The position numbers and the translations under genes are program-made. A stretch of DNA of 5,624 nt from a virus (taxonomy: Duplodnaviria; Heunggongvirae; Uroviricota; Caudoviricetes): the IMG/VR virus record IMGVR_UViG_2597490238_000004; one strand, 5' to 3'. The stretch's first letter is position 1. Every line of letters begins with the position of its first letter. The notes under the pieces are model-generated. The model was given only the letters and a program-made list of their open reading frames with translations. It did no database searches and was not told the DNA's origin. Shown here in pieces: positions 64 to 5,624 of the stretch.

Positions 64-88
64 AAAAAAGCCCGCATCAGCGGGCTTT
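64..88 (-). terminator. GC-rich hairpin with flanking A/T tracts; intrinsic terminator-like, stronger for leftward (minus-strand) transcription
   Basis: Seen in sequence: A-run 64-69, stem 70-75 (gcccgc) pairing with 80-85 (gcgggc), 4-nt loop atca at 76-79, then ttt at 86-88. On the minus strand the hairpin is followed by a 6-U tract; on the plus strand by only 3 U. Confidence 0.45.
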
Positions 89-216
89 AATGTCATAGGG
101 AGTCGCGACTCCGTTGCGTATCCTTTTTTGTCTCCTCACCGTCTGGTCGGTGTCCTGCTGAGACTTATAACTTCCTGTTTTTGTTGGTGTAGTCCTTACA
201 CCGTCCAATCATGATT

Positions 217-243
217 GGCTGGCGGGAGTTGAACCCGAGTCCG
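217..243 (-). other. att-core-like sequence resembling the 3' T-arm/acceptor region of tmRNA (ssrA); putative island/prophage boundary
   Basis: Minus-strand reading GGACTCGGGTTCAACTCCCGCCAGCCA matches my recollection of the E. coli ssrA 3' region (GGACGCGGGTTCAACTCCCGCCAGC, then TCCACCA) at 23 of 24 positions up to CCAGC, then diverges (CAATCA instead of TCCACCA). Flanking sequence on the other side is not ssrA-like, so this is a partial copy, not an intact gene. Identity is from memory, not a search. Confidence 0.4.
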
Positions 244-315
244 TATTTTTATAATTAGCTGAAATAAAACGATTAATACTAACCATTTTATTCTGCGGAT
301 CTTTTGCGGCTCCTT

Positions 316-1215
316 TTATGTCTGGATGTGGTCGTCAACACATCCTCTTTTAAATACAGGCGCTTTTACCTTAGTTGGATCATCTGTTTTAAAGATTTTC
401 AATCGTTCACTGAAGAACATTACCTCAGATCCTTTGTACCGATCTTGAGCACTGTAGTTTATTCCATATACTAATGATGATGTCTTATACATAGCTTGGA
501 TCTCAGGAGTGTTATCGTAAGAAACAATCCAAGGTGTTTTAATATTATTCTGTACGACTTTTGCAACCCTAACATGATCATCATGATCATAATGGTTGAT
601 ATATAAACCTTTACCTTTTATGTAATAAGGTGGATCCAAATATGTTAATGAGTTTTGTGGCAATTGAGTAACTATTTTTTTAATGAAATCAATTGCATCC
701 ATGTTATATAAATCTATTCTGTGACGATTTTCTGATATTTTATGGATTCGAGAAATCAAATCACTCTTATTATAGCGAGCGTCAAGCTTCCATTTCCCTT
801 CTTGATTTTTACCGCCAATTACTCCACCTTTTAATATTCCAGAACGATTTGTTCTATTGAGAAAAAAGGTTGAGAAACCAATTGTTAAAAGATCATGGTC
901 TTTAGGATTATTAATTATATCTTTCTGCCTAAACCATTCATCCATTGTAACTTCTGTTCTTTCAATTAAAGAACATAATTGATCTGCATGATTTAATACA
1001 CTGTGCCAAAAAGCATAAACAGAAATATTAATATCATTAAGGATGATTTTTTCAGCTGCATTTAGATGTAACAGTTTCAATGCTAAACCAGCACCCCCAG
1101 CATATGGTTCGGCATAATGTATAGGCGAAAGATTATTTTCTTCAATAATCCGAAGCATGAAATTTGCAAGCTTGCCTTTACCGCCAGGATAGCGAAGTGG
1201 GGTGTTAAAACGCAT
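316..1215 (-). CDS. Dam-family (D12 class) N6-adenine DNA methyltransferase, 299 aa
   Basis: Translation shows the Dam-family motif set in the Dam order: N-terminal RYPGGKGK (compare Dam LKWAGGK), motif I EPYAGGAG (nt ~1087-1110), LNDINIS (compare Dam ILADINSDL), FFLNRTNRSG (compare Dam LYLNRYGYNG), and catalytic DPPY (residues 194-197, nt 625-636). GAGG sits 7 nt upstream of the ATG at 1213-1215. AT-rich codon usage. Confidence 0.85.
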   Translation of the reverse strand: MRFNTPLRYPGGKGKLANFMLRIIEENNLSPIHYAEPYAGGAGLALKLLHLNAAEKIILNDINISVYAFWHSVLNHADQLCSLIERTEVTMDEWFRQKDIINNPKDHDLLTIGFSTFFLNRTNRSGILKGGVIGGKNQEGKWKLDARYNKSDLISRIHKISENRHRIDLYNMDAIDFIKKIVTQLPQNSLTYLDPPYYIKGKGLYINHYDHDDHVRVAKVVQNNIKTPWIVSYDNTPEIQAMYKTSSLVYGINYSAQDRYKGSEVMFFSERLKIFKTDDPTKVKAPVFKRGCVDDHIQT

Positions 1216-1250
1216 ATGATACCTCTAAATGTCAGATCTAAAGTATATCA

Positions 1251-1289
1251 AAAAAAGGGCTTTATGGCCATCACATAAAACCCTTTTTT
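1251..1289 (-). terminator. Imperfect hairpin in the ATPase-MTase intergenic region; terminator/attenuator-like
   Basis: Seen in sequence: aaaaaaggg (1251-1259) pairs with cccttttttt (1281-1289), with an inner tttat/ataaa pairing (1261-1265 with 1276-1280) and one bulged c. On the minus strand it lies just after the ATPase stop (1296-1298) and is followed by a 6-T run, then the MTase RBS. AT-rich stem, so stability is uncertain. Confidence 0.35.
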
Positions 1290-1295
1290 AATCAA

Positions 1296-3029
1296 TTAGT
1301 TATCTGACAGATATGATGAGATGGTAGCAGAATCGACACCATGTCCACTTATCATAATAACTTTAAGACTCTTTATTAGTTCATTCTTGAAGCTATCCGA
1401 TTGAACAGGATTTTTCTCGACCCAATATCGATATGGGTTATCTTTAACTCTTCCTTTGACTTGGGCCTGAAATTGAGTCGTATGTGCAAAATCTTTAAAC
1501 AGTTTTCTAACTCTCCCTCCATGGTTTTTGTTAACTTTTTTATAATTATCTATAAGGATTTTTAAATCAATCGGAGCGTTACCAATCTTTAGCGTTGCAA
1601 TTATGTCTTTAGCTGTTTTCATAAAAACAGCTTTTGTAAATTTATTTTTATTTTCCCAATATGCATCATCAGGTGGTAAATTATATAAAAACTCAAAAAT
1701 CATTTGGTCTGGAGGTAAGGTGCTTGGAAGCAAACATAAGTTTTTTTCTTTTTTGGCTTTTTTTGCATTAGCACTGTTGTCGTGAACAACATCACCGTCT
1801 AAGACGATCAAGCTTTTAGCTGTAAATTCTGGTATTTTTCTTGCCATTAAGTCAAGCATGGCAGAGCAGCTAATATTTATATTTCCTAATGGATTTAATA
1901 TTTTATTTATTTTTCGATCTGTTATCAATTGTTTGAAAAAGTCGAAACCTTCTTTGTCTTCAAAATATACATTTGCCTTTGGAAGACAAATGTCATCATT
2001 AATTTTTACAGTTTCAACATGTAAATCAGCGTGGATATCTGTCCATGAAAGATTATTCTTTGTTTTAATATCTCCATATGTGTCTGTAAGATATATTGTT
2101 TTAAAGCTATCACTATCTTGTTTTGAACGATTATAGATATCCTCTATTATTAATGGAGAGTGCGAGGTCATGATTATTTGCAGATCGTATTGTTTTGCTG
2201 CTTTAGTTAGAATATTAATTAGCTCTAACTGTGCCGCAGGGAAAAGACCTGCATCGGCTTCATCAATTAACAATATTCCGCCATGATAATCAGAATAAGT
2301 TTCCTTCAATCTTTTAAATGAAAAAATTGCCTGGATTAATTGTCCAACATTATCTTCACCAACAGATACTGATTGGTGATCATAATTGTCACCATGGACA
2401 ACCATTGAATCGATAGTACCTTTTGTTGCTGTTACTGAGCTTCCATTGTTTTTTAGTAAGAGTTGGTTACTCATCATTCTGATTTCATCAGAATTTTCAT
2501 TGATGTACTGAACATCCCGTGTTGAGTAATCAGTCCTTAATGTAATAGGAAGAAGTCGTGCTAAGCTTAAAAAAATAACAGGATGAGTAACGTTTCTACT
2601 TTGGTTTTTTTCCGGTATTGAATCATTTCCCCTGACTACAGGCCTAGATTTATCTCTGTCACTGTAGCTGTATAAACCTAATGTTAGTTTTTCAAGATGT
2701 TTGTTCGATGCACCATCATAGACACTAATTTTGACGTCCATTGAACCAGGAACATCAAATTGTTCTGAAAGCCTAAAATGTTCGCTGAAAGCTGACTTGA
2801 AGCTGCCATTTGTTAATGTTTTATATTGTGTTAAATCAGTCTCAGGGTTTTTGGTAAAGTCCTTTGTAAAGCTAAATATTTGGGCGATAATGCCAAGAAT
2901 TGTGGATTTAGATGTGCCATTTTTACCACAAATAACAGTTAGGCGAGAACCAAACTCGATGTTTATATTTTTCAGTCCGCGAAACTTCACAACATTTATA
3001 TTTTTTAGTTTGGTAATTTGATTTGCCAT
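1296..3029 (-). CDS. ABC-type (OLD-family-like) ATPase with C-terminal TOPRIM-like putative nuclease domain, about 577 aa from the preferred start
   Basis: Walker A GKNGTSKST (nt 2901-2927, verified by back-translation), signature-like SVGEDNVGQ, Walker B ILLIDEAD (nt ~2256-2279), H-loop-like MTSHSP (nt ~2154-2168). C-terminal region has an acidic VYFEDKEGFD motif (E374 of the 594-aa ORF, nt ~1959-1961) and LIVLDGD (DxD, nt ~1791-1799), the spacing and pattern expected of a TOPRIM fold as in OLD/Gabija GajA-type proteins. Preferred start is the ATG at 3027-3029 (MANQITKLKNINVVKFRGL, a typical N-terminus for this ATPase family, GGAG upstream). The ORF track's start at 3080 has no RBS and would translate through a palindrome. 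Confidence 0.8.
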   Translation of the reverse strand: MANQITKLKNINVVKFRGLKNINIEFGSRLTVICGKNGTSKSTILGIIAQIFSFTKDFTKNPETDLTQYKTLTNGSFKSAFSEHFRLSEQFDVPGSMDVKISVYDGASNKHLEKLTLGLYSYSDRDKSRPVVRGNDSIPEKNQSRNVTHPVIFLSLARLLPITLRTDYSTRDVQYINENSDEIRMMSNQLLLKNNGSSVTATKGTIDSMVVHGDNYDHQSVSVGEDNVGQLIQAIFSFKRLKETYSDYHGGILLIDEADAGLFPAAQLELINILTKAAKQYDLQIIMTSHSPLIIEDIYNRSKQDSDSFKTIYLTDTYGDIKTKNNLSWTDIHADLHVETVKINDDICLPKANVYFEDKEGFDFFKQLITDRKINKILNPLGNINISCSAMLDLMARKIPEFTAKSLIVLDGDVVHDNSANAKKAKKEKNLCLLPSTLPPDQMIFEFLYNLPPDDAYWENKNKFTKAVFMKTAKDIIATLKIGNAPIDLKILIDNYKKVNKNHGGRVRKLFKDFAHTTQFQAQVKGRVKDNPYRYWVEKNPVQSDSFKNELIKSLKVIMISGHGVDSATISSYLSDN

Positions 3030-3051
3030 GTTTCTATCTTGCTCCGTAAAA

Positions 3052-3070
3052 TGGCCACAAATTGTGGCCA
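3052..3070. promoter_or_regulatory. Near-perfect palindrome TGGCCACAA-a-TTGTGGCCA between int stop and ATPase start; candidate operator or RNA hairpin
   Basis: Seen in sequence: 9-bp arms 3052-3060 and 3062-3070 are exact reverse complements around a single central base. It sits in the 58-bp gap between the int stop (3088-3090) and the preferred ATPase ATG (3029). Confidence 0.35.
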
Positions 3071-3086
3071 ATAGTTTCATGCTTGG

Positions 3087-3092
3087 ATTATA
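3087..3092 (-). promoter_or_regulatory. Candidate sigma70 -10 hexamer (TATAAT on minus strand) overlapping the int stop codon; possible cargo promoter
   Basis: Minus-strand reading of 3087-3092 is TATAAT, a perfect -10 consensus. The best -35 candidate (TTGAAG) is only 10 nt upstream, so spacing is wrong and no good -35 exists at 16-18 nt. Weak call. Confidence 0.2.
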
Positions 3093-4254
3093 TTGTTATC
3101 TTCTTCAAGCTTGTTTGTCCATCATATTCCTTCAGATATGAGCCATAGTGCCTGAAAAGCATCTCCGGCCCTTTATGCCCCATTTGAGCTGCAAGCCAAA
3201 ACAGGTTTGCTCCCCGGCTGATATGGCGGGTGGCGAATGTATGCCTGGTTTGATATGGATTTCTGTAACGAATACCTGCTTTTCGCAATGTTGGCACCCA
3301 TGCTTTTTTCCTGATTGCATCAGCACTTGCCCAGGGCTTATTGGTCTTTGGATCTTCAAAGACAGTAGCATCCTTCATGAATGTAAATGGCTTCTGATTT
3401 ATCAGCGCCAACATTGCATCTTCTGTCAGTTCAACTTTACGAGTACCGGCTTTTGTCTTTGTTCCTTTGATAACACCGACAACACTTGCGCTCTGGACAT
3501 GGGCAGTTTTTCCAACAAAGTCGATATCACGCCATCGAAGGGCACATAATTCAGAACTACGCAGGCCTGTATGTATAGCGAACCGGAACAGATTCTCCCA
3601 TTGTTTGTTTCCGGCTGCTGTTAGTAATGCATCAACTTCTGCTGGTGATAGCGGATCAACCACGTAGCTGCTTTCTGCTTCTGACTTATCACTTTGGTAG
3701 CGCGAAGCAGTTACCAACGATACGGGGTTAATTTGAAGTACCCCATCGGTTACGGCTTCATCAAGTGCTGACCGCAGGAAAGATAACTGGTTGCGAATTG
3801 TTTTTAAGGTCGTTTTCTGGCTTTGAATCCACGCTTTCAGGATTGCTGGTGTTAATTCACTTGCAGGGCAAATGTGGAGTGAGGCTAACGCACTACGGCA
3901 TTTTTTATAACCACCAATCGTAGAGGGTGAAAGTTTTCTCGTTTCGCAGATTTCAAGGTATTCGTCCAGGTACATTTTTACCGTTTTGCCTGCAGCAGCA
4001 TTACCAAAAATTTTCAAACGAGCAGAACGGGGAAAATATTCCGCATAAATGAATGTTCCCCTTTCGATCTTATTATGAATTTCGCCGAGTGTGCGCTCGG
4101 CGTATTTAATGTTCTTTGGTGTTACTTCCAGATTGGAAAGAGGCTCACGACATTTAACTCCTTTGTAGGTGAAAGTTATATTGATCGTTTCGCCCTGGCG
4201 GTGTTTCCTGATTGTTACGCCGCGCGGTAGTTTGAGCAGTTTTGTCTGGCCCAT
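3088..4254 (-). CDS. int: Tyrosine-recombinase phage integrase, 388 aa, Rac/e14-like with N-terminal arm-binding domain
   Basis: C-terminal catalytic motifs visible: ...RNPYQTRHTFATRHISRGANLFWLAAQMGHKGPEMLFRHYGSYL (R, HxxR and the catalytic Tyr in HYGSY). N-terminus MGQTKLLKLPRGVTIRKHRQGETINITFTYKGVKCREPL resembles the arm-type DNA-binding domain of Rac IntR-like integrases (from memory). GAGG 7 nt upstream of the ATG at 4252-4254. Confidence 0.9.
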   Translation of the reverse strand: MGQTKLLKLPRGVTIRKHRQGETINITFTYKGVKCREPLSNLEVTPKNIKYAERTLGEIHNKIERGTFIYAEYFPRSARLKIFGNAAAGKTVKMYLDEYLEICETRKLSPSTIGGYKKCRSALASLHICPASELTPAILKAWIQSQKTTLKTIRNQLSFLRSALDEAVTDGVLQINPVSLVTASRYQSDKSEAESSYVVDPLSPAEVDALLTAAGNKQWENLFRFAIHTGLRSSELCALRWRDIDFVGKTAHVQSASVVGVIKGTKTKAGTRKVELTEDAMLALINQKPFTFMKDATVFEDPKTNKPWASADAIRKKAWVPTLRKAGIRYRNPYQTRHTFATRHISRGANLFWLAAQMGHKGPEMLFRHYGSYLKEYDGQTSLKKITI

Positions 4255-4421
4255 TTTGCAACCTCACTAAGATCAATCCACCTCTCCTTAACGCCTTCAA
4301 CCTTTAAAACCTGAACACCTTCACGCCAAACACCGCGCTGTACACGTTTGTTTATTGCTTCAGGAGTTTCGCCAGTTTCTTTGCAATAAGTTGAGATTGG
4401 AACGCAATCGAGGTTCAGCAT
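4215..4421 (-). CDS. xis: Excisionase-like small DNA-binding protein, about 68 aa from the ATG start
   Basis: Position immediately upstream of int with its 3' end overlapping the int start, as in lambda xis-int. Size and loose resemblance to Xis-type winged-helix proteins (ETGETPEAINKRVQRGVWREG...KERWIDLSEV). The ORF track starts at a GTG (4431-4433) that lies inside the probable Shine-Dalgarno GTGGAGAA; the ATG at 4419-4421 with GGAG 7 nt upstream is the more likely start. Confidence 0.55.
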   Translation of the reverse strand: MLNLDCVPISTYCKETGETPEAINKRVQRGVWREGVQVLKVEGVKERWIDLSEVAKWARQNCSNYRAA

Positions 4422-4480
4422 ATGTTTCTCCACTTAGCCCGCTGCACACGGGCAGTAATATCAAATTCCAGTCCTGATAA

Positions 4481-4696
4481 TTAATTTTGTTCCCTGGTTG
4501 CTACCTGTTTTATTGGCCTGATGCTGTCCAGTAGCAGACGGCGACGCATGTTTGGTGCACCCCAACGGTAACCAGTCTTTTTGTCGTAGGATTCACAACG
4601 TCCGGCAACCCAGGACGTTTCAGTGGAATGTAATTTCATCCGCTTTTCACCGTCTCGGGTGATAACAATTCCTGTATGAGTTTTTATCACGCTCAT
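4481..4696 (-). CDS. Hypothetical small phage protein, 71 aa
   Basis: ORF co-oriented with its neighbours; its ATG (4694-4696) overlaps the stop of the upstream DUF551-like gene in an ATGA arrangement, suggesting translational coupling. No motif I recognise. Confidence 0.45.
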   Translation of the reverse strand: MSVIKTHTGIVITRDGEKRMKLHSTETSWVAGRCESYDKKTGYRWGAPNMRRRLLLDSIRPIKQVATREQN

Positions 4697-5055
4697 TTCT
4701 TAGTCTCTGGTGCTTTCGGCATTACTGCCCAGTGAGTGATATTGACGTTTTCAAGGTCCCCGACCTGAAATGTCCACTGCCATTCTCCGGTTTCTTTTTG
4801 TTCCCAGGTGTACCAGAGAGAACGCCAGCCAATCAGCCAGCCTTCTCCGTTAGCATCAAATAACAGAACACTTTCATTTGCTGGTGGCAGTTCAGCTGAC
4901 ACTGGTATTATTTTGTTTTCCAGTGCCGCACATTTAGCTTCAAGCGCGTCGAATTTACGTACCAGGTACTCAGCATTTGTTTCGTTCACTTTCAGATCTC
5001 GCGGTACACATTTCCCGCGAAGAAACCCTTCCATTTCGAAAACATTCATGCGCAT
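4693..5055 (-). CDS. DUF551-like prophage protein, 120 aa
   Basis: Trp-rich C-terminal half (GWLIGWRSLWYTWEQKETGEWQWTF...HWAVMP) resembles the DUF551 family common in enterobacterial lambdoid prophages (from memory). GGAG 8 nt upstream of the ATG at 5053-5055. Overlaps the upstream HD gene stop by 10 nt. Confidence 0.6.
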   Translation of the reverse strand: MRMNVFEMEGFLRGKCVPRDLKVNETNAEYLVRKFDALEAKCAALENKIIPVSAELPPANESVLLFDANGEGWLIGWRSLWYTWEQKETGEWQWTFQVGDLENVNITHWAVMPKAPETKK

Positions 5056-5582
5056 TTGCGTAACTCCGATAACTCGTTAAAACGTTCCATAAACATCCCG
5101 TAGGCGTGGCCCGGTGCCAGTGGAATCACGTTGAACATCTCTGTTGCCGGGATGCCTTCCAGTACAGGCCAGAAAGAGCCATCATCAAGCCCGAGATCAC
5201 GGCGTTCGGTTGCCAGCATGATTAGATCGGCATATTTCACAGGCGTACTCATAACCGGGGGCAACTCGTATTTCTCACGGATTACTGCGTCTATTTTTTC
5301 TTCCATCCGTTTATAGTCAGGAAGAAGGCGTTTCAGTGGTGCGGGGATGTCCTGGCAATACGCTTCTGTTGCATCATGCATTAACGCTTCAAAAGCAAAT
5401 TCCTGCGGCACCAGCTGGCTGCAAAGCACCGCATGTTGGGCGACGCTGTAGAAGTGAGAAAGATGACCGGCAAAGCGGCAGATATTTGAAAGGGAAACCG
5501 CGATATCGTTAATCACGATGTCGTCTTTATTTATCTTGTCATAGTAAAAATGCTTCCCGGAAAAAGTTTTAATAAATGACAT
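5046..5582 (-). CDS. HD-domain phosphohydrolase (YfbR-like 5'-deoxynucleotidase family), about 178 aa from the ATG start
   Basis: HD-domain metal-binding motifs visible: ...GHLSHFYSVAQHAVL... (His) and ...ALMHDATEAY... (His-Asp), with a YfbR-like DIPAPLK segment. The ORF track starts at GTG 5607-5609, but the ATG at 5580-5582 is preceded by GGAG at 6 nt spacing (GTGGAGAACAAAATG) and is the more likely start. Confidence 0.75.
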   Translation of the reverse strand: MSFIKTFSGKHFYYDKINKDDIVINDIAVSLSNICRFAGHLSHFYSVAQHAVLCSQLVPQEFAFEALMHDATEAYCQDIPAPLKRLLPDYKRMEEKIDAVIREKYELPPVMSTPVKYADLIMLATERRDLGLDDGSFWPVLEGIPATEMFNVIPLAPGHAYGMFMERFNELSELRKCA

Positions 5583-5624
5583 TTTGTTCTCCACGTATAT
5601 GCGCTGCACCGCGCTGAATTCGGG

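Follow-up and report, generated by a model that had tools for sequence, protein, structure and literature searches.

The DNA stretch analysed here (the window; 5,624 nucleotides (nt), IMG/VR virus record IMGVR_UViG_2597490238_000004) belongs to a phiNP-like lambdoid prophage, of which it forms the int end; the integration site is the 3' end of the transfer-messenger RNA (tmRNA) gene ssrA. An AT-rich cassette of two genes lies between the integrase gene int and the attachment (att) site, and encodes a probable OLD-like ABC ATPase and a D12-class adenine DNA methyltransferase (MTase). The best overall explanation, which we consider likely, is that this prophage family has a cargo slot at this position, and that the slot is occupied here by a swappable cassette for immunity resembling restriction-modification (R-M). 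In this feature a PD-lambda-5-type methylase has a different effector, one that is OLD-like; the slot is of a familiar type, at a position not found described in the literature searched. AT-rich accessory genes (morons) are textbook knowledge for lambdoid prophages, and a compositional break alone is ordinary.

The original prediction, made from the sequence alone, had described a GC step from about 32% in the cargo to 47-50% in int and the upstream phage genes, exactly at the int stop codon (3088). The step itself was recovered, with 33.3% GC over 316-3087 and 45.9% over 3088-5624, the upper figure having been set slightly too high. The two cargo genes are alike (33.4% for the MTase gene, 316-1215; 33.3% for the ATPase open reading frame (ORF), 1296-3080); int has 44.7%, and the four upstream phage genes 46-48%. 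A single change-point likelihood scan gave its maximum log-likelihood ratio (LLR), 40.8, at 3139 (2-unit support interval 3037-3167), whereas the highest LLR in 200 shuffles was just 7.5. The compositional step is confirmed as genuine and far above chance. The GC content of third codon positions (GC3) rises from 0.24-0.26 in the cargo to 0.40 in int and 0.57 in the flanking chromosomal genes. The codon-adaptation index, calibrated on 20 host genes flanking the prophage, is 0.53 for both cargo genes versus 0.69 +/- 0.05 for the host genes. In the cargo proteins, predicted to be rich in Asn, Lys and Ile, the residues Phe, Tyr, Met, Ile, Asn and Lys (FYMINK) together account for 36%, compared with 22-30% elsewhere.

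The break does lie near the end of int; its exact position is different. The last 58 nt of int (3088-3145) have 32.8% GC, and the adjoining 60 nt (3146-3205) have 51.7%. Because this end of the gene is already AT-rich, and because the homology breakpoints fall inside int, the best boundary is 3145/3146, within the int 3' end, right after the codon (3145-3147) of Tyr370, the presumed catalytic tyrosine, and about 58 nt from the stop. Homology to other prophages with the same int restarts at 3106-3143, and the C-terminal tail of Int is specific to each cargo variant. At the att side the AT-rich tract extends across the att arm to about 243, where a weaker second break was found (LLR 12.5).

The int-xis segment was found in 396-412 of 5426 complete Escherichia coli genomes, and the cassette in 85 E. 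coli genomes, each time linked to the same int. Nine other int-sharing prophages, sampled across the ranking, contained eight other cargos, so that nine cargo types occur in ten sampled prophages with a common int and a common att core and arm. The alternative cargos include AbiLi and AbiLii (annotated as AAA ATPase and RloB), DarT with a DUF6977 protein, a ParA-like three-gene set, a three-gene set with a STAS-like protein, and four sets of one or two hypothetical proteins each. All the slot cargos are AT-rich (31-41.5% GC versus 42-47% in the adjacent 5 kb of backbone). The cargo fills exactly the space between the arm sites of att and the Int catalytic core, because the arm motif ends at 316 and homology resumes only within the 3' end of int. 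The original claim of accessory two-gene cargo between int and an att site, in a moron or defence hotspot, therefore held: the att site is real, int-sharing prophages carry different cargos rather than all the same genes, and two of the eight other cargos are recognisable defence systems. This description of the hotspot and its cargo is very probably correct.

PADLOC matches were obtained for three of the nine cargos (AbiL, DarT and the PD-Lambda-5_B MTase of the window), and six of the nine types (genes of loci L003, L005 and L006-L010) had no match among the PADLOC defence models. The six unmatched cargos are sets of one to three genes, and are candidates for new accessory or defence functions. 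In locus L004 (4625-5941) the DarT gene is followed by the DUF6977 gene, with no recognisable DarG; the DUF6977 protein is without PADLOC match and may be a different antidote. No empty int-att site was found by a chimeric att plus int query, a search that diverged att arms would escape; the joined matches were all an 850-bp single-gene cargo, the common form in sequence type 131 (ST131).

Elements at ssrA are known carriers. The tmRNA integration hotspot #9 of E. coli (Hochhauser et al. 2023, PMC10121019) likewise has a fixed temperate-element position with conserved flanks and alternative, often defensive cargos. It differs from the present slot, which in a phiNP-like lambdoid phage runs from the Int C-terminus to the arm sites of att, and for which no description was found in the literature searched. 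A precise cargo slot, from Int tail to att arm sites, is thereby placed in a common ssrA-integrating E. coli prophage family. Its richness in unannotated cargos makes it a practical hunting ground for new defence genes, like the P2 and P4 hotspots.

The step had also been taken as the mark of horizontal insertion of two foreign genes, acquired recently and consistent with a low-GC donor. On this reading the donor might be, for example, a Firmicute, and the cassette would not have had time to ameliorate. Several observations agree with this explanation: the cargo has 33% GC, a GC3 of 0.25 and a low codon-adaptation index in a host of 51% GC, the cargo copies are 99-100% identical in 79 of the 85 E. 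coli genomes, and one homologue was found in Listeria. The adjacent int is likewise near-identical in the same E. coli genomes, so that the similarity of the copies is a sign that the whole prophage end has spread, and not just the cassette. The closest homologues of both proteins are all from Enterobacterales (Citrobacter, Salmonella, Klebsiella and Enterobacter), at 76-89% amino acid (aa) identity. Moreover, phiNP has the same int-cassette junction, Int tail (GQTSLKKI) and palindrome as the window. The two are 83.3% identical at the nt level in int, 83.4% in the ATPase gene and 87.6% in the MTase gene, versus 63-70% in the rest of the phage. This near-equal identity indicates that int and cassette have diverged, or moved, together for long, and the cassette of phiNP still has 34% GC. 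This speaks against recent acquisition, and the alternative cargos of the slot are AT-rich too.

The donor part of the claim is not supported either. Mobile accessory genes generally show a lasting AT offset that follows the composition of the host. The GC content of the cassette is 34% in Citrobacter and 32-35% in Yersinia; it is 44-53% in Pseudomonas aeruginosa, where the flanks have 60-64%. Cassette GC was below that of the flanks in 68 of 70 species-level loci (mean -11.2 points, standard deviation 5.7) and scaled with flank GC (r = 0.66 over the 70 loci). Since the offset persists and tracks the host, low GC is a standing trait of this class of cargo; it gives no clock and points to no donor. 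Recent transfer from a low-GC donor is consequently highly improbable. The cassette is a counter-example to the reading of low GC as recency, lying about 11 GC points below its hosts over 70 genomes and having co-diverged with its integrase.

The first gene of the cassette encodes the ATPase. A longer ORF with its start at 3080 was rejected, as most homologues (577 aa) and the RefSeq annotation start at MANQ, which is M18 of that ORF (position 3029); the N-terminal extension is present in int-linked copies and covers the palindrome. The Pfam matches are AAA_15, AAA_21 and SMC_N, and no Toprim hit was given by Pfam for this protein. Sequence relatives of the ATPase lobes, including those from a PDB profile search, are PtuA, AriA, GajA, OLD (6p74) and Rad50. 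An alignment of 32 homologues showed invariant GKNGTSKS (Walker A) and LIDEADAG (Walker B) motifs, and E357-D358, D411xD413 and PPDQ in the C-terminal half. In the AlphaFold model (predicted local distance difference test, pLDDT, 88.9) the invariant E357/D358 follows one strand and D411xD413 another. The best whole-chain Foldseek matches were Gabija GajA (E 9e-12), the Thermus OLD nuclease (E 2e-11) and the retron Eco8 effector. From this predicted fold, the protein is probably OLD-like with a Toprim-type C-terminal domain.

The OLD-family nucleases (P2 Old, Thermus OLD 6p74, GajA, retron Eco8 and PARIS AriA/AriB) likewise have an N-terminal ABC ATPase with Walker A and Walker B motifs. GajA and OLD are the best fold matches over the whole protein, and sequence similarity is limited to the ATPase lobes. 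Four genomic contexts of OLD proteins have been described: solitary (class 1), with UvrD-like GajB (class 2), with a retron (class 3) and split as AriA/AriB (class 4) (PMC10568477). The present context differs from all four, the partner being a D12 MTase in 78 of 78 loci.

The MTase matches Pfam PF02086 over its full length (E 1.8e-19) and the PADLOC model PD-Lambda-5_B (PDLC04018) over residues 1-282 of 299 (E 2e-124). It is 53% identical to the MTase of a canonical PD-lambda-5 locus, and outscores the MTases of the canonical loci on the PD-Lambda-5_B model. The translation contains PYAGGAG, the S-adenosylmethionine-binding motif I, and DPPY, the catalytic motif IV, as motif presence only. 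The PD-lambda-5 loci have the same layout (effector gene, a gap of about 70-80 nt, MTase gene) and are likewise borne on prophages; whereas the effector here is an ABC ATPase with a probable Toprim domain, unrelated to the ParB/HEPN protein PD-Lambda-5_A. Assignment of the ATPase as PD-Lambda-5_A was rejected: BLASTP to a genuine PD-Lambda-5_A gave E 2.5, and the C-terminal half had no PADLOC hit at E <= 10.

The canonical pairing, the same MTase family with a ParB/HEPN PD-Lambda-5_A, occurs in other E. coli prophages: one such locus adjoins the portal gene of a P2-like prophage, and another follows Q in a lambdoid phage. As either a ParB/HEPN or an OLD-like partner was seen, the MTase module has two or more effectors that are unrelated to each other. 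Its association with an OLD-like partner besides the known one suggests modular immunity of the methylase plus effector type, and a methylase-linked context for OLD-like nucleases. PD-lambda-5 gave protection from almost every phage on which it was tested (Vassallo et al. 2022, PMC9519451). Its authors described it as a compacted R-M plus abortive infection (Abi) system, whose cloning required an mrr-deleted host (PMC9519451); this requirement is consistent with active adenine methylation by the MTase family.

Pairing was surveyed in 80 species-representative genomes, in which 78 loci could be evaluated. An MTase homologue was found within 5 kb of the ATPase gene in all 78 loci, and in 71 it was immediately downstream on the same strand. 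The pairing of ATPase and MTase was thus shown to be near-obligate. The pair occupies several slots. In phiNP it follows int. Prophages of P. aeruginosa have it next to a cI-type repressor gene, and those of Yersinia have it between the antiterminator gene Q and the holin gene. In E. coli it lies between intE and icd of an e14-like prophage, and next to a Prim-Pol gene in an element that is unclassified. An integrative and conjugative element (ICE) also carries it. The cassette was therefore shown to move between slots of unrelated elements. Among isolated phages, phiNP alone carried the ATPase. Literature searches (by protein accession, by OLD plus methyltransferase, and for DefensePredictor) gave no description of the ATPase-MTase pair. 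Compared with the window, E. coli strain GN4143 (L026 3073-5786) is 98.1% identical in the MTase gene, 84.9% in the ATPase gene and 97.9% in int; the different identities of the two cassette genes indicate recombination inside the cassette. A distant cassette (ATPase 47% aa identical) is located in E. coli GF131 (L030 2736-7914) between the integrase and att of an e14-like prophage at icd, and is convergent with intE, overlapping its 3' end by 11 nt.

The near-obligate mobile pair, the defensive slots in which it occurs and its defensive relatives suggest that the cassette is probably a defence system. An R-M-like mode, in which the methylase marks self DNA and an ATP-dependent Toprim nuclease attacks unmarked DNA, may apply; it is the model we prefer, if tentatively. 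Nuclease activity, discrimination by methylation and the defence phenotype would be expected from the domains and gene content. Related prophages would recombine through the conserved int body and the att core and arm, and exchange AT-rich modules, each with its own short Int tail. The two-gene, operon-like cassette would be transcribed in the int direction, with the ATPase/Toprim gene first and the MTase gene second. The methylase might then mark the DNA of the lysogen and the prophage, and the ATP-dependent Toprim nuclease might hit unmarked incoming DNA, or trigger abortive infection, as proposed for PD-lambda-5. Type II and type III R-M systems likewise have an adenine MTase near-obligately linked to a nuclease-like gene. 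They differ in the endonuclease: no PD-(D/E)xK, HNH or GIY-YIG endonuclease was found here, and the candidate nuclease would be ATP-dependent and Toprim-based.

Several points weigh against this explanation. No published experiments on the cassette were found in the literature. PADLOC did not call the cassette as a system, and gave no hit for the C-terminal half of the ATPase. Promoter-like sites in the window, among them one weak site at 3121-3092, were not above shuffle expectation, and none stood out as a promoter. The ATPase of GN4143 (85% identical, compared with 98% for the MTase) is awkward for a matched sequence specificity, and its exchange hints that specificity is perhaps not in the ATPase. 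The same genes would also suit an Abi-type or addiction function.

The main rival is an Abi or sensor system, in which the OLD-like ATPase senses a phage cue, as in P2 Old and PARIS, and the methylase is a regulator or antidote and not an enzyme that marks self DNA. The OLD/PARIS/Septu-type architecture of the ATPase agrees with it, as do the description of PD-lambda-5 as a compacted 'RM+Abi' system (PMC9519451) and the replacement of the ATPase allele in GN4143 independently of the MTase. However, a full-length MTase with intact motifs I and IV, linked in all 78 loci, is what protection by modification classically looks like, and we consider this rival rather unlikely.

A role that serves only the phage is improbable. 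The MTase would then methylate the virion DNA against host restriction, or the pair would stabilise the prophage as an addiction module. Phages commonly carry orphan adenine methylases, and the same prophage holds two further adenine methylase genes; the functional phage phiNP packages the cassette; and R-M modules are able to act as addiction systems. Nevertheless, the cassette is missing from roughly three quarters of the prophages with the same integrase, the MTase is constantly paired with a nuclease-like ATPase, and the slots that hold the cassette hold AbiL or DarT elsewhere.

If R-M-like immunity is the function, the pair of OLD-like ATPase/Toprim and PD-lambda-5_B-type MTase could represent an undescribed, widespread class of ATP-dependent R-M-like immunity and a fifth genomic context of OLD proteins. 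It might belong to a modular family with one methylase 'guard' and interchangeable effectors (ParB/HEPN or OLD-like), and the slot between Int tail and att arm would be an unmined hotspot. This wider proposal is tentative.

The window matches E. coli MS21324 at 100% identity and the ST131 strain JJ1886 at 99.4%. In MS21324 a 44-kb lambdoid prophage starts directly after ssrA and ends at the window, beside glaH. The features of the window are collected in Table 1; its seven sizeable ORFs are all on the minus strand.

Table 1. Positions of the genes, att elements and hairpins in the window.
Feature	Position	Strand	Basis or remark
Intrinsic-terminator-like hairpin AAAGCCCGC-TGAT-GCGGGCTTT with T run	67..88	-	Past the att core, downstream of the cassette
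Distal att repeat (last ~25 nt of ssrA and ~70 nt downstream)	151..245	-	Alignment to the ssrA 3' end of the same genome
AT-rich att-arm spacer	246..294	.	Fixed length, variable sequence among cargo variants
Two tandem 11-bp motifs, GCGGATCTTTT and GCGGCTCCTTT; putative arm-type Int sites	295..316	+	Fixed offsets, enrichment
D12-class N6-adenine DNA methyltransferase, 299 aa, PD-Lambda-5_B family	316..1215	-	Pfam PF02086, PADLOC
OLD-like ABC ATPase with probable Toprim-like C-terminal domain, 577 aa	1296..3029	-	Pfam, alignment, fold match
Perfect 19-bp palindrome TGGCCACAA-T-TTGTGGCCA, then TTTT (- strand)	3053..3071	.	Between int stop and ATPase start
AT-rich, cargo-specific Int C-terminal tail, residues 371-388 past the catalytic Tyr; int-side recombination junction	3088..3145	-	GC, breakpoints
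Tyrosine integrase with N-terminal arm-binding domain, 388 aa, phiNP type, targets ssrA	3088..4254	-	Pfam PF12167 and PF00589
Excisionase-like ORF	4215..4433	-	Position beside int

The att-like site of the original prediction proved to be a real att site, where the 3' end of ssrA is repeated at a displaced position. The two copies were aligned over 98 columns with five mismatches and one 5-nt gap. The att core (218-245) misses the CTCCA of the true tmRNA 3' end, and the CCA end is thus destroyed. A tRNA or tmRNA gene in the window was considered and rejected: ARAGORN found none, and Rfam gave only a weak tmRNA match of 15 nt at 223-237 (model positions 348-362, a T-arm fragment; E 0.04). With ARAGORN negative and the Rfam match so short, the site is a displaced ssrA fragment and not a gene. 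The attP core of the Citrobacter phage phiNP, TGGTGGAGCTGGCGGGAGTTGAACC, was mapped experimentally, and phiNP inserts at the same 25-bp ssrA core (PMC6456863).

Core and arm motifs are separated by a 57-nt spacer, in which length and AT-richness (25-30% GC) are kept and sequence is not; near-consensus matches for integration host factor (IHF) were found in the spacer of some cargo variants only. The 11-bp motifs are located at +67 and +78 from the core motif GTTGAACCCG in 10 of 11 prophage loci tested; the L004 locus with the DarT cargo has a single exact copy, at +67. The consensus GCGKMTCYTTT occurs 7 times in 68 kb versus 0.23 expected (about 30-fold), and five of the seven occurrences are within about 120 bp of an att core. 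The ssrA-proximal arm holds an inverted tandem pair of the arm-type motif. The second motif of the window ends at 316, in one-base overlap with the methylase stop codon. As judged from the sequence, the core, a bendable spacer, the arm-type sites and an Int with PF12167 form a lambda-type att layout, in which Int is predicted to bind the arm motifs.

The Int of phage lambda likewise has an arm-binding domain, and its attP likewise has a core and tandem arm-type sites about 70-90 bp away over an AT-rich spacer. The morons of lambdoid phages are likewise AT-rich accessory genes unlike the backbone in composition. The arrangement differs from lambda in one respect: the int stop of lambda abuts the P' arm, whereas 0.8-2.8 kb of cargo intervenes here and the Int tail is swapped along with it.

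The excisionase-like ORF is at the position of the gene annotated as xis in phiNP and as 'excisionase' in one RefSeq genome, and overlaps int by 40 nt (4215-4254). The RefSeq start of the yfdR-like gene is 5582, 27 nt inside the longest ORF (to 5609). The palindrome is kept imperfectly in int-linked copies of the cassette (phiNP and GN4143), and is missing upstream of copies in other slots. Its possible roles are those of an int terminator, an RNase III (sib-like) site or an operator. In the phiNP record OR565852.1 (L033 5235-6320) the ATPase is annotated and the downstream methylase gene is not; a 293-aa D12 methylase is called at the corresponding position in the Citrobacter rodentium chromosome (L014 7868-8749). 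REBASE lists the type II MTase M.Eco1886ORF14565P of JJ1886, restricted to ST131 clade C, and this may be the MTase gene of the window.

A hairpin similar to that at 67-88 is located downstream of ssrA at the other prophage end. The region on the chromosomal side of the core (100-217) is a diverged copy of the ssrA-proximal phage arm (L019 13832-13960), with a third arm-type motif at 116-126; the terminator at 67-88 is also in the diverged copy. The copy may be what earlier integrations at ssrA left behind, or the attP arm may mimic the region downstream of ssrA. Tandem arrays were also observed at ssrA, where the prophage abuts another integrase-bearing element at the core (L002, L006, L009, L026 and L028); in these genomes only 218-255 of the att side is common with the window. 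At the other end of the prophage (L019 14749-16767), a gene for a 673-aa hypothetical protein (33.9% GC, GC3 0.28, codon index 0.51) sits between the ssrA-proximal att arm and the tail-fibre genes, and looks like a second AT-rich cargo position.

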